This document shows, in pieces, positions 6,001 to 58,183 of a DNA stretch of 58,183 nucleotides (within the stretch, counting starts at the first letter, position 1; every line of letters starts with the position of its first letter). Source of the stretch: a virus. The notes beneath the pieces are model-generated. The model saw nothing but the letters and a program-made list of their open reading frames with translations, was not told the DNA's origin and searched no databases. The translations under genes and the position numbers were made by a program. The DNA lies in IMG/VR virus record IMGVR_UViG_3300034069_000553, positions 1 through 58,183 of that record. One strand, written 5' to 3'.

Positions 6001-9000
6001 CGGGTACCGCCATCACGAACACAATGGCCGAGCTGTATTCGATCAGCCGCTACCTCCAGCCAGAGACGCTGGCCGAGCGCGGCATTGACCGTTTTGACGC
6101 TTGGGCAAGCGGCTTCGGCGACACCATTACCGATCTCGAACCGACTGCCGGCGGCACTTACAAGCCGGTGACCCGGTTCAGCCAGTTCGTGAACGTGCCA
6201 GAGTTGTCGGCGATGGTGCGCCAGATCATGGACGTGGTGACGCCCGAGCAGCTCGAACAGTATGTCGTGCGCCCGGCCGTGCGTAACCACATGGTCGTCG
6301 TGCCGGAATCCTCCGGTCAGGCTGCTTACCGCGCCGAACTTCAGGCGCGCATGACAGCAATCGAGAACCGCAAGGGCAAGCCCAACAAGGGTGACGATAT
6401 CATGCTGTCCGTCATCAACGACGGGCGCAACGCGGCGATCGACATGCGGCTCGTGGACCCCTCGCACGAGGAAGAGCACACGAAGCTGATGGAGGCGATC
6501 GAGAACGTGCATCGCGTCTGGGGGGAAACCAAGCGTCACCCGTTCTACGAAATCGAAAAGGGAGCGGACGGCGCGCGCGGGCGCTACCGGGACGAGCCTG
6601 CCTTCTATGCGCCGGCGGCGCAGATGGTGTTCGCCAGCCGCGGCGTGGGCGCGGATCGCAAGTTCAACGTCCATCGGTTCATCAAGGACGAGCTGGTCAA
6701 GCGAGGGGTTCCCGCCGATCAGATCGTGATCTTCAACGCGCTCAAGAACGACGTGGCAAAGCAGCGCGTGTTCAACGACATGAAGGAGGGCAAGGTCCGC
6801 ATCCTGCTGGGCTCGGTGGACAAGATGGGCACCGGCGTGAACGCGCAGCGGCTGCTGGTGGCCAACCACAACATGGACCCGGAATGGCTCCCCTCGTCGG
6901 ACGAGCAGCGTAATGGCCGCATCATCCGCCAGGGCAACATGAACAAGTCGGTCGATATCTACAATTATTCGACCAAGGGCACATACGACTCCGCGATGTG
7001 GGGCATGATGGGTCGCAAGGCGAAGTTCATCGAGGGGTTCTTCCGGGGCGATCCCACGCTGCGCGACATGGAAGACTTGGGCGAAGCGTCGAAGTACGAG
7101 CAGGCCAAGGCGCTGACCACGCGCGACCCGCGCATTCTTGTGCTGACCGAGGCCAAGCAGGAACTGGAAAAGGAACTGCGCCGACAGAGCGCCTACGAAA
7201 GCGAGATCGCAACTGCGCGCGCGGAAGCGGCCAACTCCGAGCTCTGGGCCAACCGCTTGGAGCAGAGCATCGCACACGAGAAGGCGGACGTTGCGCAGGG
7301 GCAGGATATTTCCGGCGATGCGTTCCGCGCAAAGGTTGGCGACGAAGAGTTCACCGAGCGCGCCCTTTTCCAAAAGGCGCTGGACACGGCCATGGAGCCG
7401 GCCGAGCGCGAGGGGGTCGAGGTTGTCGGCGAGATCGGCGGTTTCGAGCTGGCACGCTCCACGTTCCCGGTCACCGACTTCGAGGAAGGGCGCAAGCGCG
7501 TCACCATGAAGTCGGAACTGGTGCTCCTGCTGAACGGCGACAGCCAGGCGGGGGAGCGGCGATACAAGAAAATCGCGAAGACAAGTGCAGCGGCCAGCGC
7601 GGCCGACTTCATCCGCAAGCTGGATTCGGTGGTCGCCGACACGCAGCAGCGCATCGATCAGCAACGTCAGCGTGCGGCCGAGTTCGCCGAGCGCGGCGCC
7701 ACGACCGCGGCGTACAAGGGCGAGGCTCGCATTGCCGAACTAGAGCAGCAGGTCGCCAGCATCGAAAAGGAACTGCGCGACGAAACGGCAGCGGCCGAAG
7801 CGTCGAAGCAAGGTGCAGCACAGCAGAAGTCGGAAGAGGGCGACAAGCCCAAATATTCGCTGATGAGCACGGACGAGCCGGCCTACCGCAGTGGCGACGG
7901 CAATCCCGGCGACTATGACGCCGGCAATCTTGCAGCTGATCGCGCCAACTTGGTGGACCGGCTGAAAGCGCTGGGGATCAGCGACAAGGTAACACTGCGC
8001 GTCGTTGAGCTGATCCAGAACGAGCCGCGCTATGCCGGGCAATACTGGCGCCGGGTAATCACCATCGCTACGCAGTCGATGGCAGAGGACACGGCGTTCA
8101 CCCTCGATCACGAGGCGGTTCATGCGATGAAGGAACTGGGCCTGTTCCGTGATGCGGAGTGGACCGCGCTGAAGAAGGATGCTTTGGCGGACACGGCCAT
8201 GATGGACAACATTCGCCGTCGCTATGCCAACATGGGTCTGAGCGAAGAAGACCTGATCGAAGAGGCTGTCGCCGATCGCTTCGCCCGCTGGCGTCAAGGT
8301 CGTGAGGAATCGGGCTTCGCGCGGGCGGCGTTCCAGCGCATCATGGACTTGCTCTCGGCTCTGCGCCGCCTGTTCAGCAAGGGGCCGACCGGCGGCGGCA
8401 CGTTCCGCGCAATGGAGAGCGGCAAAATCGGGTCGCGCTCCGATCTCGACAACAATGCCGGGCCGCGATTTGCGGTCACCGATTCACAGCAAAGTGCGGA
8501 TTTCAAGGCTTGGTTTGGTGACAGTAAAGTGACCGATGCGAACGGCAATCCTTTAGTGGTGTATCATGGGACGAATGCCGACGTGGCGATTTTTGGTAAC
8601 GTTGGCGGCAATTTTCCCGGCCAATCGCAAGGGTTTTATTTCTCCGACAGCCCGCGCCGCGCCGGCATGTATGCTGACCGAGACAATGCCATGGAGCGAT
8701 GGAATCCGGCTTCCAGATACGCCAAGCCGGTGGTCAGCGGGGCGAACATCACCCCCGTATATCTTTCGATCCAGAACCCGCGGGCGATTGTTGGCGAGTG
8801 GGCATCAGCGGAAGCATTCGCTGATGCCAATGGCGGAGAAGTGGTGCGCAAGGCGCGCGAGGATGGGCACGATGGAGTGATCGTCACCAACACCGCGTAC
8901 GATGATCCTATGCACGTCTATGTTGCCTTCAATCCTGCGCAGGTAAAATCTGCAATTGGCAATTCTGGGACGTTCGACAGCCGCAACCCTGACATTCGTT

Positions 9001-31557: not shown

Positions 31558-32064
31558 TTGGCCGAGTTCAGCGACGCAGAAAAGGCACTGATTGTGACCC
31601 GGCTGGCGCACTTCAAGCGCCCGACCGACGTGCTCGAAGAACTGCGCGAGATGGGAATCGAGAGCGACCTGAAGCACATCGGTGGATACGATCCCACGCG
31701 GGGATACTTCCGCGCTGGTGATCGGTGGCGCGTTCTCTTCGAGGAGGAGCGCGAGGCGTTCATGGCCGGGCTGCGCGATATCCCGATCGCCAATCAGCGC
31801 TATCGTCTCCAAGGGCTGCAAGAAACGCTTGACCATGCGATGCGCTCGAAGAACCGGGTGCTCTACAACCAGACGCTGCGCCAGGCGGCGGAGGAAGTCG
31901 GCGGCGCGCTGACGAACGAGCGACAGGTCAAGGTGACCAAGGGCGCGGAAGAACTGACGCCCGAAGAGCGCCGCGCCGAGCTGACCCGCGTTCTGCGCGA
32001 GGCAATCGCCAAGATCGCCGGCGACCCGGCCGGTGCGGCGCCAGCACCAGAAGGAATCCAGTGA
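31558..32064 (+). CDS. terS: terminase small subunit candidate (DUF2280-like)
   Basis: SDAEKALIVTRLAHFKRPTDVLEELRE..GYDPTRG..RWRVLFEEEREAFMAGLRDIPIANQRYRLQGLQ matches my recollection of DUF2280; TTG start. Confidence 0.6.
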   Translation: MAEFSDAEKALIVTRLAHFKRPTDVLEELREMGIESDLKHIGGYDPTRGYFRAGDRWRVLFEEEREAFMAGLRDIPIANQRYRLQGLQETLDHAMRSKNRVLYNQTLRQAAEEVGGALTNERQVKVTKGAEELTPEERRAELTRVLREAIAKIAGDPAGAAPAPEGIQ

Positions 32065-33119: not shown

Positions 33120-33466
33120 TGTGGTGGCCCTTCCGCCGCAAGTCGAAGCCCAAGCCCCTGCCGCACATGGGGCCGGCATCCGTGGATTGGGTGCCAGGCG
33201 ATATTGCGGAATGTGTGTCCGATCGCTGGAATCCGAAAGCCGTCGCCATCGCAGGCGTGCTGCCGCCCAAGATCGGCGATCGGCTGATGGTCAGGCAGGT
33301 CCAATACGGCATAGACCTGACCGGATGCTATACCGGCTTCGGCCTCTGGTTCATCGGCCGGGGCGGCATCGGCTACGATGCGGGCAACTTCCGCAAGATC
33401 GTCCTGGCCGACACCGGCGCCGACCGGAAGGTGGCGCGCAGCCGACCGCTGGAGCCAGTCCAATGA
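33119..33466 (+). CDS. hypothetical protein
   Basis: TGATG-coupled. Confidence 0.5.
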   Translation: MWWPFRRKSKPKPLPHMGPASVDWVPGDIAECVSDRWNPKAVAIAGVLPPKIGDRLMVRQVQYGIDLTGCYTGFGLWFIGRGGIGYDAGNFRKIVLADTGADRKVARSRPLEPVQ

Positions 33467-33621
33467 GCGGCAGGGGCATGGAATCCCGACCGTACAAGGA
33501 GCGCGCCGGCCGCGACGTTGCAGCCAAAGCCGAGCGTACCACGCTGCCCGAAGCACCCTGCTTCAACTGCGGCGCGCGCGGCTGGTGCCGTCATCGCAAG
33601 CCCGAACATCAACCCTCCTGA
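33463..33621 (+). CDS. hypothetical small protein with a CCHC-like knuckle
   Basis: CFNCGARGWCRH. Confidence 0.4.
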   Translation: MSGRGMESRPYKERAGRDVAAKAERTTLPEAPCFNCGARGWCRHRKPEHQPS

Positions 33622-33635
33622 CCCCGGAGAACACC

Positions 33636-34784
33636 ATGAAGACCATCGACCGTGTGAAAGCCCTGATCGGCGACCAGATCAACGTGCCGGCCGACACCAT
33701 CGCCGACGACGCCCCGCTGGCTGGCATGGGCATGGACAGCCTCGACCGCGTGGAACTGGCGATTGCGGTGGAAGAGCACTTCCACGTCGTCGTGCCGGAC
33801 GATCACATCGAGAGCGTGGATCTGGGCACGCCCTGCGGCATGGCCGGCTATGTGGACAAGCTGCTGAGCGAGAAGGCGGCGGAGCCACTCGGCGTGCCCG
33901 CTGAAGGGTACATCATCCGTGATAACACCTTCGCGGGAAACACCATCTCGGACAACCACATGCAGATCATCGCCCCGGTTATCGCGGAGCAGCCCATCAC
34001 GCGCGAAGAGATGATCCGCCGCGGCGTGGACGCCGACGAGGGCACGGCCATGAGCGTCATCGCCAAGCTGGGCTGGCCGACCGCGGCGAACCCGCAGGGC
34101 ACCGATCCCACGCACATTCTGGTGCCGGTGCCCGAGAAAATCGACTATGCCGCCATGTCTCCCGGCGAGATGCACTCGGCACTGTCTGGTGGCGCAGAGC
34201 CAATCGGCGGCGACGGCATGAAGTGGGTCGAGGCGTTCATGCAGATGGCGTCCGTGGCGGGGCCACTCGGCCGGGCAATGCGCGCCTATCCCGATGGCGA
34301 TGCGCAGCGCGAACTTCAAGGGATCATGCTCGGCTGGTTCGCCAACGCCATCATGGCGGGATACGATCACGCGCGGAACAACCCCGAAGCCATCGACGGC
34401 TCGGCGCTCGACAGCATCGCCTTTACCAAGAAGCCGGTGCAGATCGAGGCGGTGGAGTTCATCGGCGTCAAGGTCGAGGACGGCACGGCGCGCGCCCACT
34501 TCAACCGACCTGACCTGCCGCAGTGGCTGCTGGATGCGTTCGCCGAGGCGGACGGCGATCCCGGCGCCGCGTGGCTGCGCCACGATGGCAGCGTCGCCGA
34601 CGCGCCCACCGCGCCGAACGTGTTGGTCATCGGTACGCTTGAAGGCGAGCACATCGCGTCGCCAGGTGATTGGATCATCCGCGGCGTGGCCGGCGAGATT
34701 TACCCTTGCAAGCCGACCATCTTCGCCGCGACCTATGACCCGGTGCCGGCCGACGACGGTGCCGCGGCGCACGAGCCGCTGTGA
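33636..34784 (+). CDS. acyl/peptidyl-carrier-protein domain fused to phage domains (382 aa)
   Basis: The N-terminal 80 aa align with ACP: IDRVKALIGDQINVPADTIADDAPLAGMGMDSLDRVELAIAVEEHFHVVVPDDHIE (Ser codon 33738-33740). Also WFANAIMAGYD and a C-terminal GDWIIRGVAGEIYPCKPTIFAATYD module. Confidence 0.75.
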   Translation: MKTIDRVKALIGDQINVPADTIADDAPLAGMGMDSLDRVELAIAVEEHFHVVVPDDHIESVDLGTPCGMAGYVDKLLSEKAAEPLGVPAEGYIIRDNTFAGNTISDNHMQIIAPVIAEQPITREEMIRRGVDADEGTAMSVIAKLGWPTAANPQGTDPTHILVPVPEKIDYAAMSPGEMHSALSGGAEPIGGDGMKWVEAFMQMASVAGPLGRAMRAYPDGDAQRELQGIMLGWFANAIMAGYDHARNNPEAIDGSALDSIAFTKKPVQIEAVEFIGVKVEDGTARAHFNRPDLPQWLLDAFAEADGDPGAAWLRHDGSVADAPTAPNVLVIGTLEGEHIASPGDWIIRGVAGEIYPCKPTIFAATYDPVPADDGAAAHEPL

Positions 34785-34987: not shown

Positions 34988-35142
34988 TGAAGGACATTGA
35001 GGCCGCGCGCTTGATGCGAGAGATGGGCGAAGACGAGCGCGAGGAAGCTATCGCGCTCGCGCCCAACGTCATCGACGCTCGCGGCCTTTTCCCGGCCAGA
35101 CCGGATACCGAACGCGCGCCGGCGCCTCCCGGCAAGGAGTGA
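34987..35142 (+). CDS. hypothetical small protein (51 aa)
   Basis: TGATG-coupled. Confidence 0.35.
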   Translation: MKDIEAARLMREMGEDEREEAIALAPNVIDARGLFPARPDTERAPAPPGKE

Positions 35143-35146
35143 TCCC

Positions 35147-35422
35147 ATGACGACGACCGTAACCGTGAAGACCCATGGCAACCCGGCGCTGGTGCGCTTG
35201 GAAAACCGCATCGATCATTCTACGCCCGAGCAATCCACCTATGGGCACAACAGCACCCGCATCTTCATTCCCAAGGACAGCACCCGCGAGTTCGTGGTGA
35301 CCGACTTGCAGACCGTCAGCAGTGTCGAAGAACTGCGCGTTCAAGCGACTAGCTTGGAGGATGCCTATCCCGTGGTTGATCTAGTGGAAGAGGCGGGCAG
35401 CGGAAGCGCGCGCAACTTCTAA
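35147..35422 (+). CDS. hypothetical protein
   Basis: SD ggag upstream; coding bias. Confidence 0.55.
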   Translation: MTTTVTVKTHGNPALVRLENRIDHSTPEQSTYGHNSTRIFIPKDSTREFVVTDLQTVSSVEELRVQATSLEDAYPVVDLVEEAGSGSARNF

Positions 35423-35425
35423 CCC

Positions 35426-36259
35426 GTGCTCCACAACCCGCTCGCTGAACTGATAACGCTCGGGCAGGCGGCCAACCTCGGACCGGAGCAGTTGGCCGCC
35501 GCGCTTGATGACGATTCCATCCTCGCCATCTTGAAGGAACTGGACCGCGAACGCGAAGCCGAGCGGTTCGGCAAGTTCCGCAGCATCTTCCCCGACGAAA
35601 CCACCATGGTCGGGGATACGCTGTATTATGCCCGCGACCTGTACCCGAAGCACCTTGAGTTCTTCCGCGCCGGCAAGCTGTACCGCGAGCGGTGCGCGAT
35701 GGCGGCCAACCGCGTGGGCAAGACCTTCGGCATGGGCGGCTACGAGGTGGCCTGTCACCTGACCGGCCGCTACCCGGCGTGGTGGGAGGGCAAGCGCTTC
35801 CGTCATCCGATCCGCGCATGGGCCTGCGGCAAGACCAACGAGACGACGCGCGACATTGTGCAGAACGTGCTGCTGGGCGATATCGCCTACGACGGATCGC
35901 GCAAGGTGATGGACGGCTCGGGCATGATCCCGCGCGACGCGATCGACCGCGGCCAAGGTGGCACGACGTGGAAGCAGGGCGTTTCCGATCTCGTCGACAC
36001 GGTGCGTATCAAGCACGTCCAAGGTGGCTGGTCCAAGCTCGGGCTCAAGAGCTACCAGCAGGGACGCGGCAGCTTCGAGGGTGTGGCCCAGCACGTCATC
36101 TGGGATGACGAGGAGCCGCCGCTCGACGTGTGGAGCGAGCAGTTGATCCGCCTCGCCACCACCAAGGGCATCTTGCTGCTGACATTCACCCCGCTGGAAG
36201 GTATGAGCGAGGTTGTTCAGCAGTTCCTGCCGGCGGAGTACCGACCGGCGACCGCATAG
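35426..36259 (+). CDS. terL: terminase large subunit, ATPase half only
   Basis: Walker A AANRVGKT, Walker B VIWDDEEPP, coupling motif TFTPLEG; ends ...LPAEYRPATA-TAG. Confidence 0.85.
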   Translation: MLHNPLAELITLGQAANLGPEQLAAALDDDSILAILKELDREREAERFGKFRSIFPDETTMVGDTLYYARDLYPKHLEFFRAGKLYRERCAMAANRVGKTFGMGGYEVACHLTGRYPAWWEGKRFRHPIRAWACGKTNETTRDIVQNVLLGDIAYDGSRKVMDGSGMIPRDAIDRGQGGTTWKQGVSDLVDTVRIKHVQGGWSKLGLKSYQQGRGSFEGVAQHVIWDDEEPPLDVWSEQLIRLATTKGILLLTFTPLEGMSEVVQQFLPAEYRPATA

Positions 36260-36270
36260 AGGGGAATGAC

Positions 36271-36633
36271 ATGAGGTTGATCGCGAACGTTCTGGTCGCC
36301 GCCGCGCTGCTCGCCGCGCCGGGCGCCGCCGCCCAAGTGCAGCGCACCATGACCAACGACCGCTGCTCTGGCAGTATCGCGGTGGGCGGCACGTCACAGA
36401 TCGCGGCGAACGGCGACAACTCCCGCGTGTGGCTGGTGGTGCAGAACCCGATCAACGCCACCGAGCCCCTGTTCGTGGACTTCGGCCCGAACCATTTGGC
36501 ATCCTCGACGCTTTCCACGCAGCTCGCGCCTGGCGGATCGGTCAGCTTCTTCGGCGGCGTGGTGCCGATCCAGCAGGTGAACGTGAACGCCGCGACCAGC
36601 GGCCACACCTTCATCTGCGAAACCGGGAGGTAA
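36271..36633 (+). CDS. secreted protein (signal peptide), unknown function
   Basis: MRLIANVLVAAALLAAPGAAAQV...; SD agggga. Confidence 0.6.
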   Translation: MRLIANVLVAAALLAAPGAAAQVQRTMTNDRCSGSIAVGGTSQIAANGDNSRVWLVVQNPINATEPLFVDFGPNHLASSTLSTQLAPGGSVSFFGGVVPIQQVNVNAATSGHTFICETGR

Positions 36634-36636
36634 GCC

Positions 36637-37176
36637 ATGCGCCTGCTACTGTTCGCGCTTGCTGCGCTTACTGCGCTCGTCGCCGCGCCCGCCGCGGCTC
36701 AGGTCAGCAACCCGCCGGCCGTCCCCAACCTGCCCGATCCGGCCACCATCGCCACGAAGCAGAACGTGGCCGACGCGATCGTCCAATCCACTCCCGGCAC
36801 CTGTCCGATGCCCGAGCGCGATACCCTGTCCGGTTCGGCTGGCGTGGGTGATCGGTGTATGCCGCGCTCCGACAACTCGCGGCCGTCCGTCATTCAGGCC
36901 AAGACCACCATCACGGCAGCGGATTCCAGCTATTCGGTGACTTTCGACGTGCCGTTCCCCTCGACGCCAATTTACGCCGACGCGCGCGTGTACGGGGTGG
37001 ACCAGCCCTATATCTGCACCGTCAAGACGCTGACCACGACCGGCGCGACTGGACGTTGCTTTCAGCTCGTCGCCACAACGCTGCCGACCCTGACGACTTC
37101 CCTGCTGGGTCTTGTCGTCTCTCCCGTCGCCAGTGCTGCCGGCAATCTTTCCGTGCGCGTCGTTGCGCGTCAGTAG
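36637..37176 (+). CDS. secreted protein (signal peptide), unknown function
   Basis: MRLLLFALAALTALVAAPAAAQV..., signal similar to the previous ORF. Confidence 0.6.
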   Translation: MRLLLFALAALTALVAAPAAAQVSNPPAVPNLPDPATIATKQNVADAIVQSTPGTCPMPERDTLSGSAGVGDRCMPRSDNSRPSVIQAKTTITAADSSYSVTFDVPFPSTPIYADARVYGVDQPYICTVKTLTTTGATGRCFQLVATTLPTLTTSLLGLVVSPVASAAGNLSVRVVARQ

Positions 37177-37186
37177 GAGAATCGAC

Positions 37187-37429
37187 ATGGCATCCCTCCC
37201 CTTTGATCCGAACAACCCCGAGGTGCGCGTCGCCGGCTTGCCGGTGCTGCTGGGTGTCGATGGCGGCGGCTATTACGCCACTGCCACGTTCCAGAGCGTG
37301 TACGTCAACTCCTCCCCGCTGATCGTCTATCTCGATCCGCCGGTCGCGACCGTTGCCGAGGTGAGCCTTCCAGGTCTGCTGGTGGCATTGCTCGGCGCGC
37401 TGGCGAATGGCGCTATCATCCAAGCCTGA
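37187..37429 (+). CDS. hypothetical small protein with a hydrophobic C-terminus
   Basis: SD taggaga; LPGLLVALLGALANGAII. Confidence 0.5.
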   Translation: MASLPFDPNNPEVRVAGLPVLLGVDGGGYYATATFQSVYVNSSPLIVYLDPPVATVAEVSLPGLLVALLGALANGAIIQA

Positions 37430-37440
37430 AGGAACGCCTC

Positions 37441-39549
37441 ATGCCGACGATCCGCATTCCCACCAGCAATCCAAAGTTTGGCCGCTTCGTTCCTGTCGGC
37501 GTCAACGGCGCCGTGCGGCGTATCCCGGTGGGTGTGGACTTCGATGCGACGGATGCGGAGATGGGCGCGCTGGCCGCCGCCGGCGTGCCCACCAGCATTG
37601 GCTCGCTGCCGGCCGGCACGATCATGCTTCCCACCAGCCTTGGCTCGCGTATCCCGATCGGCCTGAACGGGGTCGTGTCCTATCTGCCGACAGGCATCCC
37701 CTTCGCCGCCACGCCCGAGCAGTTGGTGGCTCTTGATCGGAAGGGCATATCTTACTGGTCGGCGACAGTCGTGCCCGCGCAAACATTTCCTACCCCAGCG
37801 GATTTCCTGCTGGTCGGTAACCGCTTGGCCTATCCAGTCGAGACCACCCCAGCTGCGCAATTCGTGGGCGGCTTCATGACCTATCAGGCCCCACCGTGGG
37901 ATACAGTAGGCTGGCGCTTTGGTTTTGTCGGATTTGCCGGCCAGAACAATATCGGCGAAACCAATCTCGGCAACGACGTGCCCTACGAGGCGGCTCTTAT
38001 CGAGATCAACGACGTAAAGTATTATTTGCCGGCCACGCCGGGACAGGCGACTACTTCGCCAAACCCCTTCGTCGTCCCCAATGGCGGCTTCTACTGGACG
38101 GCAGATCACAACATTGTCGTTCCAGCGAACACGATCGTCCGTATTGGTTGGGCCGATGCCGCGCCGACTACCGCCACTATTAATCGAGTGACGGCAATCA
38201 CGCAGGTGGGGCCGGAACTTTTTGCTACGGCGTCCGGGCGCGGAGATTATAGCACTGGCGGATCAACATCCCGCTTGTCTCTTGTGGCGTCCAACACCAC
38301 GGCTGCATCGACGTCTCCCGGCTTGGGTCTTCTTGGCAACAAGTTTATTGGGGCTCCCGCTAAGGTTGTTGCCCGTCCGCTCACGATAGCAGACGCCGCA
38401 AAGGCAAAGGCATTTCTCGGCGTAGGTATGTCGATCGATTGGGGCGGCAATCACAAAAACGCTGTTTACGGTTCGGACGGCGTTCATTCGATGGCCTATG
38501 GCGGCTTTGGTTATGGCCTTGCCGACCCCACGAACGGGCGCATCCCTTTTGCGACTTTCGCGGTTCCCGGCACGCGGGCACTGGATATCACCAATAATCC
38601 CGGCGCAGCACCGGGCGTTGGTGCGTCCGGCTGGGCCAAGCGCGAGGCGTTCTTCGCGGCTGTCGGCTTCCCATGGACTCACGTAATCATGGGTGCGCCA
38701 ATCAACGACATTACGGCTTTCCCGAGCGCCACTGTGACCGCCAATCTCGATGCCGCACTGGCCGCGATCAAGGCTCGGGGTGGTCGCAAGACGATCCTCA
38801 CCCCGGCGCGCCCCCAAACCAACGCGGCCGAAGACCCTGGCGCAACGGCGAATGGATATCTCTACACTGGCGGAGACACGCACCAGACGCGCAGCGCGGA
38901 TAGCGTACATGTGGCGGTTGATGCGTACATCATGGCAAAGCCCGTCAATGTGGATTTCGTGCTCGACATTCGGCCGGCGCACGAAAGTTCGACCGGGAGC
39001 CGCAAGTATAAGCAGGGTCAATCCACCACGCTTGCGCAAGCCGCAGCCGGCCCGCCTGCCAACGTAGTCGGGTCGATCGCGGCTGGGTCTAACGTTCTGA
39101 CGGTGGAAAGCGTCGGGTCGGGCACGCTGGCGGTGGATCAGCGCGTCACGGTAGCGGGCCTGCCCACCAATACCTTCATCAACGCTCTAGGTACGGGGAC
39201 GGGTGGCACGGGAACCTATACCCTGTCCGCCAATGCCACGGCGGCGGTTTCGAGTGCGACCCTGACAGTGACCGGCGTTTATCGAATCACGGTTTCGGAC
39301 GGCTCGCGGATTGCGCCCGGTGATTTCATTGCCATCAATCCAAATATCTCCGCTTCTCTGTCCGAAGGCGCAATCGTTACCACGAAGGCGGGCAATGTCC
39401 TGACGCTGACGGGAGGGCTCACAAAGGCGCAGGCGAGCGGCGCGACCGTGACCGTTCAGTGGGTGGCAGACGGAACGCACCTTTCCACCGCGGGAGCAAA
39501 GGCCGAGGCTGCCATCGTGGACGCTGCAAAGCCGGCGATGACGGTTTAA
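37441..39549 (+). CDS. 702-aa protein with two N-terminal 'PVGVNG' modules and an SGNH/GDSL-like hydrolase domain (fibre/esterase candidate)
   Basis: Block I-like GVGMSIDWGG (Ser 38431-38433), block III-like MGAPINDI, block V-like WVADGTHLSTAG at the C-terminus. Confidence 0.55.
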   Translation: MPTIRIPTSNPKFGRFVPVGVNGAVRRIPVGVDFDATDAEMGALAAAGVPTSIGSLPAGTIMLPTSLGSRIPIGLNGVVSYLPTGIPFAATPEQLVALDRKGISYWSATVVPAQTFPTPADFLLVGNRLAYPVETTPAAQFVGGFMTYQAPPWDTVGWRFGFVGFAGQNNIGETNLGNDVPYEAALIEINDVKYYLPATPGQATTSPNPFVVPNGGFYWTADHNIVVPANTIVRIGWADAAPTTATINRVTAITQVGPELFATASGRGDYSTGGSTSRLSLVASNTTAASTSPGLGLLGNKFIGAPAKVVARPLTIADAAKAKAFLGVGMSIDWGGNHKNAVYGSDGVHSMAYGGFGYGLADPTNGRIPFATFAVPGTRALDITNNPGAAPGVGASGWAKREAFFAAVGFPWTHVIMGAPINDITAFPSATVTANLDAALAAIKARGGRKTILTPARPQTNAAEDPGATANGYLYTGGDTHQTRSADSVHVAVDAYIMAKPVNVDFVLDIRPAHESSTGSRKYKQGQSTTLAQAAAGPPANVVGSIAAGSNVLTVESVGSGTLAVDQRVTVAGLPTNTFINALGTGTGGTGTYTLSANATAAVSSATLTVTGVYRITVSDGSRIAPGDFIAINPNISASLSEGAIVTTKAGNVLTLTGGLTKAQASGATVTVQWVADGTHLSTAGAKAEAAIVDAAKPAMTV

Positions 39550-39553
39550 ATAA

Positions 39554-40300
39554 GTGGGAGAGATTACAGAATCCTCTTATCTTGTTACAGCCGGATGGGA
39601 TGACGTGCCTCATTTGGATGAGGACACGAAGCGTCAGCTGCTGGCACGCACCCCGCCGTATCTGCGCGACGCGCGCTCCAAGGGCACACCCTCGCTCGGC
39701 GCCGGCGCAATCTATCCGATTCCGGAAAGCGATATTACGGTGCCCACCGCGCCGATCCCACCGCACTGGAAGCGGTCGTATGCGATGGACGTGGGCTGGA
39801 ACCGCACGGCTGCGCTGTGGGGCGCAGAGGACCCGGAGACGGGAAACTGCACGCTCTACAGCGAATACTACAAGGGCCAGGCTGTGCCGTCCGTTCACGC
39901 CGATGCGATCCGCTCGCGCGGCAAGTGGATGAAGGGCGCAAGCGATCCCGCGGCGCGCGGCCGATCGCAGAAGGATGGCGAGCAGCTGTTCGCCACCTAT
40001 CAAGAGCTGGGGCTCGATCTCGTGGCCGCCGACAATGGCGTGGAGGCTGGCATCTACGACGTGTGGCAGATGCTGGAATCTGGGCGTCTGAAGGTGCAGC
40101 AGCACTTGGTCAACTGGTTCGCCGAATACAGGCTGTATCGTCGGGACGAGAAAGGTCACATCGTCAAGAAGAACGACCACTTGATGGACACGACGCGCTA
40201 TTGGGTGCGAACAGGCAGGAAGATCGCCACCTATCGTCCGGTCGATGCAATCGCCGGTGGAATGGGTGGCGGTGGCATCGCAGGGCGAATGGGGTACTGA
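39554..40300 (+). CDS. terL: terminase large subunit, nuclease half only
   Basis: GWDDVPHLDE, YAMDVGWNRTAALWG, DPAARGRSQKDG, GRLKV, KKNDHLMDTTRYW. GTG start 4 nt after the upstream stop. Confidence 0.85.
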   Translation: MGEITESSYLVTAGWDDVPHLDEDTKRQLLARTPPYLRDARSKGTPSLGAGAIYPIPESDITVPTAPIPPHWKRSYAMDVGWNRTAALWGAEDPETGNCTLYSEYYKGQAVPSVHADAIRSRGKWMKGASDPAARGRSQKDGEQLFATYQELGLDLVAADNGVEAGIYDVWQMLESGRLKVQQHLVNWFAEYRLYRRDEKGHIVKKNDHLMDTTRYWVRTGRKIATYRPVDAIAGGMGGGGIAGRMGY

Positions 40301-40301
40301 C

Positions 40302-42638
40302 ATGCTGATGAACAACGTTCCCTCGCTCGCCGCGATGGCCCAGGTGGATGTAATCGATAACGCCGTGGTGCCGCCGCCGCGGCCGACCCCCGATCCTGCC
40401 GCAACGGAAGAAAGCCTGCGCGGCATCGTGGACCGCCTTCAAAAGCTGGCTGATGAGCAGGTTCGCCAGAAAAGCACGGTGGAGCAGCGCTGGATCAAAG
40501 CCCTTCGCTCGTTCCACGGACATTACGATCCCACGATCGAAACCCAGCTCAAGGAGCAGAACAAGAGTCGGGCATTCGTCAAGATCACCCGCAAAAAGGC
40601 GAACAGCTGGAAGGGGCGTCTCGAATCCCTGATCTTCCCGACTGACGATCGCAACTATGGCATCCAGCCCACGCCGGTCCCGTCGCTGACCGCGGACGCC
40701 AAGCGCGCGGCGGAAGAGGCAGAGGCCGCCGTCGCGCAGGCGAACGAACAGCAGGCGCTGGCCGAGCAGCAATCGGCGCAGGGCGACGAGGCGGGGGCGG
40801 CCGTCGCGCAGACCGCAGCGCAGCGCACCGTGAAGAAAGCCACCGACGCCGCCGATCGCGCGAAGCAGCTGGATGCCCAGATCGCAGAGGCGAAGAAGCG
40901 TGGCGAGGCCATGCAAGCCGTGATGGACGATCAGCTGATCGAATGCAGCTACCCCGGAGAGGGGCGCGACGCGATCAGCGATTGGGTCATCTTGGGCAGC
41001 GGCATCGTCAAGGGGCCGTTGGCCGCGGACGTGGCGCGCGGGCAGTGGGTCAAGAAGGAAGACGGCTTCGTCTATGAGCGCTCGCCCGATCCGGCCCCAA
41101 TCTTCAAGCGCGTGGACCCTTGGAGCTATTTCCCGGAAATGGCCGCGCGCAAGAAGGGGGAGGAAGAGTTCGAGTTCGAGCGCCACCTGTGGACACGCAA
41201 GGATCTGCGCCGCAACGTGAAGGAGCGCGGCTTTGATGCCGACGCCACGCGCCGGCTTTTGGACAACGAGGTGCGCGACCGCTCCATCACCGACGCCGGC
41301 ATGAGCTATCTCGCCGAACTGCGTGCGATCGACGGCGCCACCGAGTTGCTAAAGGGTCGGTTTGTCGGCTGGGAGTACCATGGGCCGCTGGAATGCGACG
41401 AGCTGGTGACGATGCTCCATGCCGTGGGCGAGCACGATCTCGCTTTCGAGTATCAAGACAATCCCGATCCCTTGGCCGAGTTGCGGGTCATCGCCTATTT
41501 CTGTCAGGGTGAGTTGCTGAAGATCGCGCCGGAGTATCCCCTCGATAGTCAGGAATCGCTCTACAGCCTCGTCCCGTTCGAGCAGTCGGAGGGATCAATG
41601 TTCGGCTATGGCATCCCCGATATCATGGAGGACAGCCAAGCATCCATGAACGCCGGGTGGCGCATGGCGCTCGACAACGGCGGCTTATCCTCCGGGCCGC
41701 AAATCGTGGTGGACCGCGATGGTATTGAGCCGGCGAACGGCGTCTGGGAGATCACGCCGCGCAAGATATGGTGGCGCAAGAAGGGTGCCGCGCAGGTCAA
41801 TGACCTGTTCCAGGTAGAGGACATTCCCAACAAGGTCGCCGAACTGATGGCGATCGTGGAAACCTCGCGACGCTTCGCCGACGACGAAACCGCTCTGCCG
41901 GTGCAGTCGGAGGGCGAGATGACGGACAACCCGAACGTCACGGCCACTGCGTCCAACATCATGGCGCTGGGATTCAACGTCACCTTTCGCATGGCGGTGA
42001 AGGCGTGGGATGACGGGATGACTGTGCCGTCGATGCGCCGGCTGTACGACTGGAACATGCAGCACAACGACCGCGACGACATCAAGGGCGACATGAAGGT
42101 GGACGCCCGCGGCACGTCGGTACTCTTGATGCGGGAGATGGTCGGCCAAGTGCTCATGGCCGTGGTGCAGAACCACACCGCACACCCGGTGCTGGCCGCC
42201 ATGCTCAACCCCTACGACGCCTATCGCAAGTTCCTCCAATCCGTGAACGTTCAGCCCGACGAGATCATGGTGTCCAAGGAGGAATGGGAAAAGCGCATGA
42301 AGGCGCAGGCGGACGCGGCCGGCCAGCAGCAGAACCCACAGATGGTCACGGCGCAGATGCAGCTTCAGCGCGCGCAGCTGGAATCTCAAACTTCGCTGCA
42401 AATTGCCCAGATCAATCGCGACACCGAGCTGACCAAGCTCGCCGAGGCGCGCAACATGAAGCTGGACGATCTCAAGACCATGCTCAACATCAAGCAGATC
42501 GAAACCGGCAGCAAGGAGCGCATGTTCGCCGCCGAGCTGGGTGCCGAGCAGCAGAACGCCGACCAAGCGCGCGCAGATGGTCGTGAGCCGAGCGGATCGG
42601 GCGGGTTCATCTCGTCCGGCAGCGAGCCGCGCCCATGA
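40302..42638 (+). CDS. portal protein
   Basis: 778 aa, immediately after TerL-C and before the scaffold/capsid genes. Confidence 0.7.
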   Translation: MLMNNVPSLAAMAQVDVIDNAVVPPPRPTPDPAATEESLRGIVDRLQKLADEQVRQKSTVEQRWIKALRSFHGHYDPTIETQLKEQNKSRAFVKITRKKANSWKGRLESLIFPTDDRNYGIQPTPVPSLTADAKRAAEEAEAAVAQANEQQALAEQQSAQGDEAGAAVAQTAAQRTVKKATDAADRAKQLDAQIAEAKKRGEAMQAVMDDQLIECSYPGEGRDAISDWVILGSGIVKGPLAADVARGQWVKKEDGFVYERSPDPAPIFKRVDPWSYFPEMAARKKGEEEFEFERHLWTRKDLRRNVKERGFDADATRRLLDNEVRDRSITDAGMSYLAELRAIDGATELLKGRFVGWEYHGPLECDELVTMLHAVGEHDLAFEYQDNPDPLAELRVIAYFCQGELLKIAPEYPLDSQESLYSLVPFEQSEGSMFGYGIPDIMEDSQASMNAGWRMALDNGGLSSGPQIVVDRDGIEPANGVWEITPRKIWWRKKGAAQVNDLFQVEDIPNKVAELMAIVETSRRFADDETALPVQSEGEMTDNPNVTATASNIMALGFNVTFRMAVKAWDDGMTVPSMRRLYDWNMQHNDRDDIKGDMKVDARGTSVLLMREMVGQVLMAVVQNHTAHPVLAAMLNPYDAYRKFLQSVNVQPDEIMVSKEEWEKRMKAQADAAGQQQNPQMVTAQMQLQRAQLESQTSLQIAQINRDTELTKLAEARNMKLDDLKTMLNIKQIETGSKERMFAAELGAEQQNADQARADGREPSGSGGFISSGSEPRP

Positions 42639-55647: not shown

Positions 55648-56646
55648 ATGGGGCTTCTCGGCCGAATTGTAGGCGGCGCACTGTCGGGCGTAGGCGCCGG
55701 CATGGCGCAGGCAGCCGAGGCGCGGCGGCAGCAGTCGATGGAAATGCTGCGCCAGCAGTTTCAGACGGAGCGGGACGATCAAGCCTATTCTCGTACCGTA
55801 GAGCGGGATAACGCCAAGTTCGGTCAGCAGAAAGAGCTGAAGAACATTGATTACACCCAGGACGTGGGCAAGATCGCCATGACCGGGAAAGTGCAGCAGC
55901 AGCGCGACGCGACGCAACATGTTTACACCTTGGAGGAAATTGGTGCCAAGAGCGTGGCGGAGAAGGAGCAAATCCGCCTGCGCGAGCAGTTGGGCACCGC
56001 GCGCGATGCGGCATCTATCAAACTGCGAGACAGCTTGGAGACCGGCGATGTTCGCAGCGTCGTGCGAGGTAAGGATGGCCAGTATTACGGAGTCACCGAT
56101 CGCGGATTGATCGCTACCGGAGTGCAGGCCGATCCCACTTCCGCGGACAAGTCAAGCAATGGCGGCGGATCGCTGACGGAAAACGAACAGGCCAACGCCT
56201 TGGCGGAAGCGCGCGCCGACTGGCGAAGGAACGGGAAGCAGGGAGACGAGCCGCGCGCGTCCGATTTCATCGGCATGACGCACGCGGAGTTCGCCGCGCG
56301 GCGCGGCGGTGATGGCACCCCTTCGGAAAGCGCCCCCGGCCTGCTGGCAAATCCCAATCGCAAAGGCGTAACCGTGAAGGCACGCCTCCCCGCACCTGCT
56401 GCCTCAGCCGCTGCCGCACCAGCGGCCGATCCGGTGCCAAGCTACGACCCCAGCCGGGCAGCCGGACTCATGGGGAGCCTGGGCCCCCCCGATATGACGC
56501 GCGGCGTTGCGGCGGCGCAGCGGCAGGAGGCAGGCAATACGTACACATTGGCGGACCTTAAGCAGTTCGCTAAGAGCAAGGGCATGTCGATTGACGAGGC
56601 CCGCCGGTGGGCCTCGAAGCAGGGCATGAAGATGGGGACGCAATGA
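55648..56646 (+). CDS. hypothetical protein (internal virion candidate)
   Basis: ATG 55648; ATGA overlap with the start of the giant ORF. Confidence 0.55.
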   Translation: MGLLGRIVGGALSGVGAGMAQAAEARRQQSMEMLRQQFQTERDDQAYSRTVERDNAKFGQQKELKNIDYTQDVGKIAMTGKVQQQRDATQHVYTLEEIGAKSVAEKEQIRLREQLGTARDAASIKLRDSLETGDVRSVVRGKDGQYYGVTDRGLIATGVQADPTSADKSSNGGGSLTENEQANALAEARADWRRNGKQGDEPRASDFIGMTHAEFAARRGGDGTPSESAPGLLANPNRKGVTVKARLPAPAASAAAAPAADPVPSYDPSRAAGLMGSLGPPDMTRGVAAAQRQEAGNTYTLADLKQFAKSKGMSIDEARRWASKQGMKMGTQ

Positions 56647-58183
56647 GCAATCCGCTGCTGGACGCTTGGGACAAGAACGCCCCGGCTCGCCCTGTCACGG
56701 GCAACCCCCTGATCGATGCTTTTGACGATCAGCAGGACGCCAGCAGCGGGTTCGATACCGGCGCGTTTAAGGCCGATGGCGCTGAACGCCTTGATCGCGT
56801 TGTTCGCGACGGGCGGCGCAAGGAAGCGCCGGCCCCGCCGACCGTGCGCGATCGAGCAGGATGGGCCGCCCAAGGGATGGCCGATCTCGCGCAGTCGGCG
56901 ACGGGCGGCGCGATCAGCGGCGTGGGCTCCGCGTTGGCCGGCGTGGCTGACCTCAGCGAGGCGACGGCGCGAACGCTGGATCGCTTTGCCACTGCGGCAG
57001 GGGCGCCCAACCTTGTCGATTATCTGATGGCTCCGGCCAACTATCTCGGCATCAATGCGCGCACCAGTGCCGCTGGCAATGCAATCGAGAAGGTGGGGGA
57101 TGCCGCCGACGTTCCGGCGGATCGCCGCGGCAATCCCGCGAATATCGTGGCGAACGCGACCGGGCAGCTTGCCGGCCAGATCGTTCTCGGCTTGGCCGGT
57201 GGTGAAGCAATCATCGTGCCGTCGCTGCTGGGGCAGGGCGCCAACCAAGTCGCGGACACCGCGCGCGCAAAGGGCAAGGAAGGTACGGCGGGCGCGGATG
57301 CGGCCGTCATCGGCGGCGCGGCGATCACCGGGTTGCTGGAAAAGATGGGCCTCAACGCGGTGCTCGATCGCGTCCCCCCCAAGATCAAGAACCGGATCGT
57401 CGCCAAGATTGCTGATTACGCTGTGGCCGGCGGATACGAAGCAGCGGAAGAAGTCGCCGAACAGGTCTTGCAGAACTTGGCGGTCAAAGTGGGCATCGAC
57501 CCGAGCCAGCAGCTGGGCGAGGGCGTGACGGAATCCGCCATTGGCGGCGGCGGCGCGGGATTTATTGCGCGCGCCGTGCTGGGGAAGTTCGGCCATAGAC
57601 CTCGTGGGCGTGATGACAGCAGCATCCCCAACGACTTCGATCAGGGCGCGCCTATCGCGCCGACGGGACCCGATGCGCCGATCGGCCCGGATATGTCGCC
57701 AGCCTCCGAGCCGACGCCGACCGGAGATTTCCTGACCGGGGCCACCGGCGCGCCGCGCACATTCGCCACGCAGAAGCAGGCAGCTGTATGGATGACGGCC
57801 AACAAGCAGGCGCACCTGTGGGGCATTGACCCGCAGGATGACGGCACGTTCCGGCTCAAGCGCAATCCGCTCGCCGACGTGCCCGACGAGGCGGTTCTGA
57901 CACCCGAAGATCAGGCCAGCCCGATTCCGAACAGCGTGATTGCCGCCGGCCGCCGCGCCGCGGGTGCGGCGCTCGACCCGCAGGCGGCCGCCGCAAAGGC
58001 GGATGCGTTCATCGCCGACCCGCTGAACGCCGAAGCGCCTACCCCGGAAGAGGCGATTGCCGCGCTCGAAGCGCAGAAGGCGGCGCCGGTGGGCCAGCCG
58101 CGTGCGCCCGACCGCGGGGAGCGCGCCGTCGCGCGCGCGCCGGCGGGTCTGTTCGAGCAGCCGGCGGCTGGCGGCGGCGCGGC
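56643..58183 (+). CDS. 5' part (about 505 codons) of the giant polyvalent ORF; continues at nt 1 through the end repeat
   Basis: ATG 56643 overlaps the upstream stop (ATGA). I translated frame 0 by hand to the window end and found no stop. It is absent from the ORF track only because it lacks a stop. Gly/Ala-rich with hydrophobic stretches. Confidence 0.8.
   Translation, partial: MSNPLLDAWDKNAPARPVTGNPLIDAFDDQQDASSGFDTGAFKADGAERLDRVVRDGRRKEAPAPPTVRDRAGWAAQGMADLAQSATGGAISGVGSALAGVADLSEATARTLDRFATAAGAPNLVDYLMAPANYLGINARTSAAGNAIEKVGDAADVPADRRGNPANIVANATGQLAGQIVLGLAGGEAIIVPSLLGQGANQVADTARAKGKEGTAGADAAVIGGAAITGLLEKMGLNAVLDRVPPKIKNRIVAKIADYAVAGGYEAAEEVAEQVLQNLAVKVGIDPSQQLGEGVTESAIGGGGAGFIARAVLGKFGHRPRGRDDSSIPNDFDQGAPIAPTGPDAPIGPDMSPASEPTPTGDFLTGATGAPRTFATQKQAAVWMTANKQAHLWGIDPQDDGTFRLKRNPLADVPDEAVLTPEDQASPIPNSVIAAGRRAAGAALDPQAAAAKADAFIADPLNAEAPTPEEAIAALEAQKAAPVGQPRAPDRGERAVARAPAGLFEQPAAGGGA
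58156..58183. repeat. terminal direct repeat, copy 2
   Basis: identical to nt 1-28; unique genome length is 58,155 bp. Confidence 0.95.

Follow-up and report, generated by a model that had tools for sequence, protein, structure and literature searches.

Introduction

The gene for the large terminase subunit (terL, product TerL) is a hallmark gene of tailed phages, and the protein is among the most studied viral motors. In current models of this motor, movement of the lid against the ASCE core takes place within a single chain. Several systems have been described in which an essential gene is broken up or packaging functions are shared out. The nrdA gene of Aeromonas phage Aeh1 is split by mobE, one of the homing-endonuclease genes-in-pieces (PMC2677866), and split-intein "fractured genes" include the T4-like gp17 terminase locus; their split-intein parts measure 88-105 and 33-54 amino acids (aa), and the spliced product was inferred to match the unbroken protein exactly (Dassa et al. 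2009, PMC2677866). The terL genes of Jug phages carry group I introns, for which there is RNA evidence, and inteins (PMC12880540), and Streptomyces phages have short terL recoding gaps of 7-10 nt (PMC10732093). In human cytomegalovirus (HCMV), packaging functions lie on the separate chains pUL56 and pUL89 (PMC6897398). Here we describe a terL that is encoded by two genes, terL-N and terL-C, with four further genes between them, in the IMG/VR virus record IMGVR_UViG_3300034069_000553 (positions 1 to 58,183; this whole stretch of 58,183 nucleotides is called the window below). The loci with which we compare it were drawn from three sources: IMG/VR, a set with one genome for each bacterial species, and metagenome assemblies.

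The two terL genes are complementary parts of one TerL

The two terL open reading frames (ORFs) of the window are separated by 3,294 nt, and the ATPase (core and lid) and the nuclease are not found on a single polypeptide (Table 1). The motifs quoted for them in an initial annotation of this DNA were all found: AANRVGKT, VIWDDEEPP and TFTPLEG in TerL-N, and AMDVGWNRTA, DPAARGRSQKDG and KKNDHLMDTTRY in TerL-C. When searched against PHROGs, TerL-N matched phrog_31467 at 7.7e-79, a 261-position family labelled "unknown function", and TerL-C matched half-size "terminase large subunit" families. The layout of TerL-C begins with the last ASCE strand (LVTAGWDD), lid and linker at residues ~1-47, followed by an RNase H-like nuclease at ~48-233 with the catalytic acidic residues D79, D131 and D208/D212, and then by a C-terminal tail.

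The initial annotation had taken the two ORFs for complementary parts of one TerL, and this was borne out by alignment with intact homologues of 478-480 aa. Our intact references were EBPR podovirus 1 gp39 (480 aa) and the TerL of an Acinetobacter baumannii plasmid (478 aa), and in this alignment the two halves meet within a single variable loop, no part of the protein being lost or present twice. TerL-N ends a few residues past the conserved VVQQFLP, TerL-C starts ~10 residues ahead of the conserved (V/I)TAGWDDVPHLDE, and the loop at the break site differs in length among the intact proteins.

The break had initially been placed in the inter-domain linker. Instead, it falls within the Pfam ATPase domain, at about position 153-165 of the 215 positions of the Terminase_6N profile. 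Intact homologues span positions 1-212 of this profile, which in the window is divided into 2-153 on TerL-N and 165-212 on TerL-C residues 11-58. In the TerL of D6E, residues 230-241 form the ATPase-nuclease linker, and Y213, M216 and R224 belong to the lid subdomain (PMC5727402). A profile search aligned the start of TerL-C to D6E TerL residue 192 (E=9e-9 overall), and the break lies ~38 residues upstream of the site equivalent to the D6E linker. The TerL-C nuclease also matched the P22 TerL nuclease in the Protein Data Bank (PDB 4DKW) at 8.7e-17 by sequence, in an alignment that begins at residue 48. Because of the division of Terminase_6N, the start of the 4DKW match and the D6E alignment, we place the last ASCE strand and the lid on TerL-C. 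Judged from these sequence comparisons, TerL-N is the ASCE core, and TerL-C is the last strand, lid, linker, nuclease and C-terminal tail.

In an AlphaFold2 model of TerL-C alone, the block-mean predicted local distance difference test (pLDDT) values for residues 50-233 were mostly 85-96, and those for residues 1-47 were low. The top Foldseek match of this model was again 4DKW, with a target-normalised template modelling (TM) score of 0.84, and PDB 8DGC (Avs3) was also among the matches. Residues 1-47 are highly conserved in the aligned relatives yet unconfident when modelled alone, as would be expected if they pack against TerL-N.

These models also bear on whether the halves could be separate enzymes that form no stable complex, with TerL-N acting as a phi29-like ATPase and TerL-C as a headful or cos nuclease recruited for cutting. 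ATPase-only packaging motors do exist in phi29 and asccphi28 (PMC8216284), and the nuclease domain of TerL-C is predicted to fold confidently by itself. TerL-N alone, however, would be without the last strand and lid, which are the parts that couple ATP hydrolysis to movement in D6E (PMC5727402), and the highly conserved but unconfident start of TerL-C looks as if it packs on TerL-N. We therefore consider separate enzymes improbable.

Spread and history of the split

Stand-alone halves are common among relatives of the window. For TerL-N, 120 of the 120 closest homologue clusters listed were stand-alone proteins of 250-298 aa with 58-100% identity, and the same was true of TerL-C (120 of 120; 231-253 aa, 60-100% identity). 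At 50% clustering, the 150 best representatives included 68 N-half-only and 55 full-length proteins. Hundreds of clusters show the split arrangement, and among them are many ~58-62-kb contigs that recur in different samples. We found 78 loci with both halves, 40 of which are split at the same loop, with a half-to-half distance of 0 to 6.8 kb. Some of the split loci are in prophages of Alpha-, Beta- and Gammaproteobacteria, others on viral contigs. Among the hosts given in the records are Roseovarius, Aminobacter, Azospirillum, Sphingopyxis, Sphingobium and Fulvimarina, as well as Herminiimonas, Comamonas, Acidovorax, Thiolinea and Neptunomonas. The two-gene TerL with a cargo slot is thus widespread rather than a one-off disruption.

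An insertion of ~280-340 aa at the P-loop was seen in 20 of the 68 N-half-only representatives. Stand-alone N-halves of relatives (proteins P0246 and P0249; L060 8909-10501) carry P-loop inteins with LAGLIDADG endonucleases, and these intein-bearing N-halves still terminate at the same fission point.

Some split loci carry no cargo at all. In eight of them the TerL-N stop and the TerL-C start overlap as ATGA, and in other cargo-free loci the two genes overlap by 8 nt or are 3 nt apart. The head peptide of TerL-C, MPEI(S/T)xSxY(L/M)VxAGWDD in the window's clade and MSKxxxxAGW in others, is the same with or without cargo. Because the head is conserved in both situations and zero-insert splits exist, the fission came before the cargo. 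The initial annotation had seen the four-gene cassette as the cause of the split, a view that does not survive comparison with these relatives, which have the same break with zero insert.

The window is a metagenomic contig, and a split created by a chimeric assembly or a frameshift error could look similar; odd tandem terL copies in two relatives (L057 and L066) would fit such an artefact. The same architecture recurs, however, in isolate genomes (some of them complete chromosomes), metagenome-assembled genomes, IMG/VR, ENA and Logan assemblies, and the eight ATGA junctions are independent and have conserved start peptides. An assembly or sequencing artefact is extremely unlikely. The tandem terL-N/terL-C copies of L057 10001-19242 (Reyranella) and L066 10001-15197 (Enhydrobacter) lie ~3.9-4.4 kb apart, and the junction in L057 is cargo-free and followed by repeated terL copies that are 98.6% identical; either a genuine duplication or faulty assembly could account for them. 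In viral contig L013 (6608-9562), TerL-C is on the strand opposite TerL-N and TerL-N is frameshifted, which could be due to inversion, decay or misassembly.

In neighbour-joining trees, the split loci fall in several clades and are interleaved with intact loci, and the N-half and C-half trees of the 78 loci are incongruent. One example is provided by Acinetobacter and Cupriavidus, whose N-halves are 51-63% identical to the window but whose C-halves are only 33-40% identical. Overall, two C-half types (~55-78% and ~33-40% identity to the window) pair with similar N-halves. Repeated fission or fusion is suggested by these trees, and so is module exchange near the break, in split and intact genes alike. 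Exchangeable modules, as indicated by the incongruent trees, would also fit halves that act as separate enzymes.

Selection on both halves

The ratio of nonsynonymous to synonymous substitution rates (dN/dS) was 0.08-0.40 for TerL-N and 0.14-0.49 for TerL-C, with values of 0.136 and 0.139 for the closest pair. By this measure, both halves are under purifying selection. The core residues of the Walker A, Walker B and coupling motifs of TerL-N were invariant among 14 relatives, as were D79, D131, D208 and D212 of the TerL-C nuclease in the aligned relatives. From this conservation, both halves look functional. The P-loop inteins that stand-alone N-halves of relatives still host, and the start-like GC3 dip of the TerL-C head described below, favour the same view.

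The first 28 nt of the window are identical to positions 58156-58183, indicating a circular assembly and a complete genome of ~58,155 bp. The initial annotation reported no second intact terL in the window, and in a tblastn search of this complete circular genome no second terL was found. The structural module is complete in the window, and conventional tail genes are present downstream.

Two options had been offered for this phage at the outset, a two-polypeptide TerL or a packaging defect. The first is now strongly favoured, because many lineages share the split, purifying selection acts on both halves and the complete genome has no other terL. As for the second, the phage might be a prophage in decay, or a satellite reliant on the terminase of a helper. 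Many members of the group are integrated prophages, and no cultured phage in a 50,697-record phage collection has more than 60% TerL-N identity to the window, both of which would fit such a defect. Yet purifying selection extends across deep divergence with invariant catalytic motifs, the arrangement spans hundreds of clusters with recurrent ~58-62-kb contigs, and the window itself is complete with a full structural module. A packaging-defective phage is disfavoured by these results, and we give it very little weight.

Junctions and translation

The downstream junction was read from the sequence and agrees with the initial annotation, in which the GTG start of TerL-C was placed 4 nt past the stop of the 702-aa ORF. 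Such a start context points to translational coupling, in which termination at the upstream stop would be followed by re-initiation. Relatives show a similar arrangement, with a TerL-C start that overlaps or directly adjoins the stop codon of whichever gene comes before it. The GTG of terL-N is also found just past the stop of an upstream ORF (Table 1). Both terL halves appear, from these contexts, to be translated by coupling.

The first codons of TerL-C in the window are A/T-ending, which had been interpreted as the trace of a junction created by insertion. The composition itself was confirmed, with a GC content at third codon positions (GC3) of 0.25 compared to 0.78 in the gene body, and the window is the most extreme locus in this respect. 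Low GC3 is general to split loci, however: the 12 codons of the TerL-C head were 0.106 below the gene body in 40 split loci, whereas the equivalent 12 codons in 38 intact loci were 0.039 above it (Mann-Whitney p=2e-5, not phylogeny-corrected). An insertion scar is therefore ruled out as the reason for the A/T-rich head, since the dip is common to split loci and absent in intact genes. Its restriction to split loci fits a genuine translation start.

No promoter-like sites and no terminator-like sites on the + strand were found between ~31.7 and 44.9 kb, and the first strong terminator-like hairpins come after the capsid gene. This is consistent with a single late transcript.

The insert and its cargo genes

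Four same-strand ORFs with their own Shine-Dalgarno (SD) sequences had been annotated in the 3,294-nt gap. All four stand, and a GC3 frame plot supports that they are coding. Pfam matched no family over these ORFs, recombinase and homing-endonuclease families included, and only two PHROG families were matched, both of function unknown; cargo genes 2 and 3 were without a PHROG match. Cargo gene 1 shares 51% identity with the gene at the first cargo position of relative L003; for cargo gene 2, comparison with the gene at the second position there gave nothing significant.

Cargo gene 4 is probably a tail-fibre-like or receptor-binding protein, judging from several similarities. Its residues 3-105 share 49% identity with the beginning of the ORF in the fibre region of L003, and the N-terminal ~100 aa look like a shared anchor. 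Residues 540-613 match phrog_21413, a family that is also matched, alongside a tail-fibre PHROG, by a cargo protein of L046. A homologue, P0243, is located in another phage between the internal virion proteins and the lysozyme/holin, the usual fibre site. Only 5 homologues were found in a protein database of ~5.8 billion sequences, and these few homologues, together with a GC3 lower than that of the neighbouring genes, fit a recent acquisition. An AlphaFold2 model made with the 5 homologues was poor (mean pLDDT 39.9), and a profile search of the PDB returned nothing meaningful for this protein. We also considered a putative SGNH esterase, since DGTH-type motifs can be seen by eye near the C-terminus; Pfam gave no match. 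BLASTP against the GDSL-lipase cargo protein of L095 gave weak N-terminal similarity only.

The content of the insert matters for whether the two halves might be rejoined into a single-chain TerL, by a group I or II intron, by trans-splicing of a split intein, or by frameshifting or bypassing. Each of these routes has been documented for terL in other phages (PMC12880540, PMC2677866, PMC10732093). In the window, no Rfam family was found at E<=1 in 35000-40800 and none at the gathering threshold window-wide, no tRNAs were found, and the search for repeats flanking the insert gave none beyond chance. Pfam detected no intein or Hint domain on either half. These Pfam, Rfam and repeat searches agree with the initial annotation, which had seen no intein, intron core, recombinase, homing endonuclease or flanking repeats. 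Rejoining is further opposed by an insert that is fully coding and by the inserts of relatives, which range from 0 to 6.8 kb and are unrelated to one another. A split intein would need parts of 88-105 and 33-54 aa, compared to the ~8 and 10 non-conserved residues present at the break. Frameshifting or bypassing is difficult to reconcile with the window's coding gap of 3.3 kb, and the ATGA junctions of the eight loci have no slippery heptamer in common. Rejoining of the halves is thus highly unlikely. Recombinase-mediated excision was likewise rejected as a rejoining route, given that neither a recombinase family (Pfam) nor flanking repeats were found.

Cargo turnover in relatives

The contents of the cargo slot vary widely. 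Relatives carry mostly tail fibre, tail spike or virion proteins in their inserts, with examples listed in Table 1. There was no homing endonuclease between the halves in the window and none among the scanned cargo proteins of relatives. A sign of turnover is an identical TerL-N protein, P0003, in L093 (9001-12201) and L094 (8742-11394), which is accompanied by 326- and 187-aa cargo proteins in L093 and by a single 327-aa gene in L094. The same TerL-N with two cargo sets points to very recent gain or loss of cargo genes.

Genome context

The initial annotation located its candidate small terminase (TerS) gene 3.4 kb upstream of terL-N, and a DUF2280 ORF is indeed found there. Its family, phrog_546, is labelled function unknown in PHROGs, and its spacing of 3-4 kb upstream of terL-N is kept in relatives L029 and L093-L096. 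Small variable ORFs fill the block between the DUF2280 ORF and terL-N, and the blocks of relatives include Tad2-like and Acb3-like anti-defence genes. Downstream of terL-C, the portal gene is 46-71% identical to the gene that follows TerL-C in relatives L003, L004 and L007, and the gene in the portal position of L029 carries PF23899 SU10_portal.

A protein with an acyl-carrier-protein-like (PP-binding) domain is encoded at most one small ORF upstream of terL-N, and such a protein lies directly upstream of terL-N in the closest relatives (L093 8012-9001, L094 7753-8742 and L095 7711-8997). The window also encodes a giant 3,886-aa ORF with "polyvalent protein" hallmarks, whose domains are LPD38, an ART-PolyVal ADP-ribosyltransferase, N6 DNA methylase/Eco57I, helicase C and FtsK-gamma. 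Another ORF runs off the window end and may relate to the giant ORF across the circular junction.

Table 1. Features of the split terL locus in the window, neighbouring genes and cargo of relatives
Feature	Source	Coordinates	Strand	Details
terL-N	Window	35426-36259	+	277 aa; ASCE ATPase core; GTG start; TAG stop 36257-36259; Pfam Terminase_6N 1.6e-10
terL-N start context	Window	35420-35428 region		GTG 3 nt past stop of upstream 91-aa ORF; no SD
Walker A of TerL-N	Window	~35702-35725		AANRVGKT
Walker B and catalytic Glu of TerL-N	Window	~36095-36115		VIWDDEE
Coupling motif of TerL-N	Window	~36182-36193		TFTP
Upstream junction	Window	36257-36273	+	TerL-N TAG, then SD-like GAGGGG, then ATG of cargo gene 1
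Cargo gene 1	Window	36271-36633	+	120 aa; SD-like GAGGGG; GC3 ~0.9; predicted signal peptide MRLIANVLVAAALLAAPGAAAQ (by eye)
Cargo gene 2	Window	36637-37176	+	179 aa; SD GGGAGG; predicted signal peptide MRLLLFALAALTALVAAPAAAQ (by eye)
Cargo gene 3	Window	37187-37429	+	80 aa from ATG; SD AGGAG; ORF open from 37112
Cargo gene 4	Window	37441-39549	+	702 aa; tail-fibre-like/receptor-binding candidate; SD-like GAAGGA; GC3 lower than neighbours
Downstream junction	Window	39547-39556	+	Cargo gene 4 TAA, 4 nt, TerL-C GTG; no SD
terL-C	Window	39554-40300	+	248 aa; predicted lid and nuclease part; GTG start; Pfam Terminase_6C 1.7e-8, residues 84-216
Portal gene	Window	40245-42638	+	phrog_332/phrog_1216; overlaps terL-C end, true start may be further downstream
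DUF2280 ORF	Window	31558-32064	+	168 aa; candidate TerS of the initial annotation; Pfam DUF2280 4.3e-16; phrog_546
PP-binding protein gene	Window	33378-34784	+	Acyl-carrier-protein-like domain
Giant ORF	Window	57-11717	+	3,886 aa
ORF at window end	Window	56607-58183		Runs off window end
Cargo	L029			579-aa protein; tail fibre/spike; phrog_7121 8.8e-44
Cargo	L006			134-aa protein; virion structural protein
Cargo	L038			Beta-helix protein
Cargo	L095			GDSL-lipase "tail protein"
Cargo	Other relatives			Ig-like and other proteins
Cargo	Acidovorax prophages		Reverse	Helix-turn-helix genes

Discussion

We think it very probable that this phage has a functional two-chain TerL, which would assemble non-covalently by fold complementation, with coupled translation of TerL-C and a junction that serves as a cargo slot. 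One late polycistronic mRNA, also covering the portal and capsid genes, would probably yield both halves, and initiation of TerL-C would be coupled to termination of whichever gene precedes it. As suggested by conservation, non-covalent association through fold complementation may then rebuild the complete ATPase domain, and the assembled complex would work on the portal like an ordinary TerL, with the packaging activity that this implies. The fission is old and heritable, its simplest form being the ATGA-overlapping ORFs. The new junction between two strongly conserved coding arms became a landing site for variable genes, which in the window encode two small secreted-looking proteins, one small ORF and the 702-aa fibre-like protein.

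This explanation builds on what can be observed directly, namely complementarity, conservation, selection, variable cargo and the absence of splicing elements. Several points weigh against it. Binding of the two chains and formation of virions in the clade are inferred from sequence. The position of the lid on TerL-C rests on the D6E profile alignment, which is weaker N-terminally, and on a weak Pfam match (E=0.078). The dS values are near saturation for most pairs, and the trees are neighbour-joining only and rough, which makes the count of independent fissions uncertain. Finally, as no close cultured phage is found in the phage collection searched, the split clade rests on prophages and metagenomic contigs.

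More speculatively, the terL fission point could be a dedicated site of host-range exchange, beside a motor that packages with core and lid on separate chains; we put this forward tentatively, as something that may well prove otherwise. If true, the terL halves would act as homology arms between which fibre or depolymerase cassettes and morons are swapped by recombination with the late operon left undisturbed, and covalent continuity of core and lid would be dispensable for force generation. It is also a possibility that the two-chain form alters recognition by TerL-binding host sensors such as Avs3.

The split has practical consequences as well. A natural cut between core and lid would be a ready-made system for testing which covalent connections the motor needs. 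With N-halves in an "unknown function" PHROG and C-halves mostly annotated as "hypothetical protein", TerL-based detection, completeness estimates and phylogenies will mishandle this clade. At the terL junction lies a hot spot for tail-fibre and accessory genes that had gone unremarked; this bears on host-range evolution, and the junction offers a natural insertion site for engineering.

How does this locus compare to the systems described so far? Single-chain Terminase_6N/6C TerL proteins (P22 gp2 4DKW, D6E 5OE8 and T4 gp17) have the same motifs, the same nuclease fold and the portal gene next, but in the window the ASCE core is on one chain, and the last strand and lid are on the other. As in phi29/asccphi28 and in HCMV pUL56/pUL89, no single chain carries both ATP-driven translocation and DNA cutting. 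Those systems, however, are not TerL fissions at the core/lid boundary, whereas the chains of the window sum to one ordinary TerL.

Jug phages likewise have terL annotated as several ORFs, as does the cultured Xanthomonas phage DES1 (L097 1875-4208), whose terL consists of 118 aa, a 165-aa GIY-YIG ORF and 398 aa; StenR_269, a relative of DES1, has an intact 524-aa TerL. The genes of Jug phages and DES1 are RNA-spliced or presumed to be so, and the DES1 break comes after ~118 aa; the insert of the window, in contrast, is coding cargo with no ribozyme signature. The fractured gp17 locus is similar in that a further gene separates the two ORFs into which the terminase is broken at a single locus. 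It differs from the window in that no intein module is present at the window's break, the inteins of relatives being located at the P-loop within the N-half instead.

In searchable full text, which covers few subscription journals, a split or bipartite two-ORF TerL was found only as intron, intein and recoding cases, and an earlier description is possible. Three features taken together, a split with no mobile element, a break between core and lid, and variable multi-gene cargo across a clade, are absent from the systems compared here.

By analogy, the nearest concept appears to be the endonuclease-split nrdA of Aeh1, whose NrdA halves reportedly assemble into an active reductase, a result attributed to Friedrich et al. 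in 2007. Both cases have an essential phage enzyme made as two separately translated chains, with foreign DNA between their genes and non-covalent assembly required. Unlike nrdA/mobE, the terL described here has no homing endonuclease between its halves and is also found split without any insert, and its junction carries variable multi-gene cargo, tail fibres and morons among it, in a large clade rather than in one phage.

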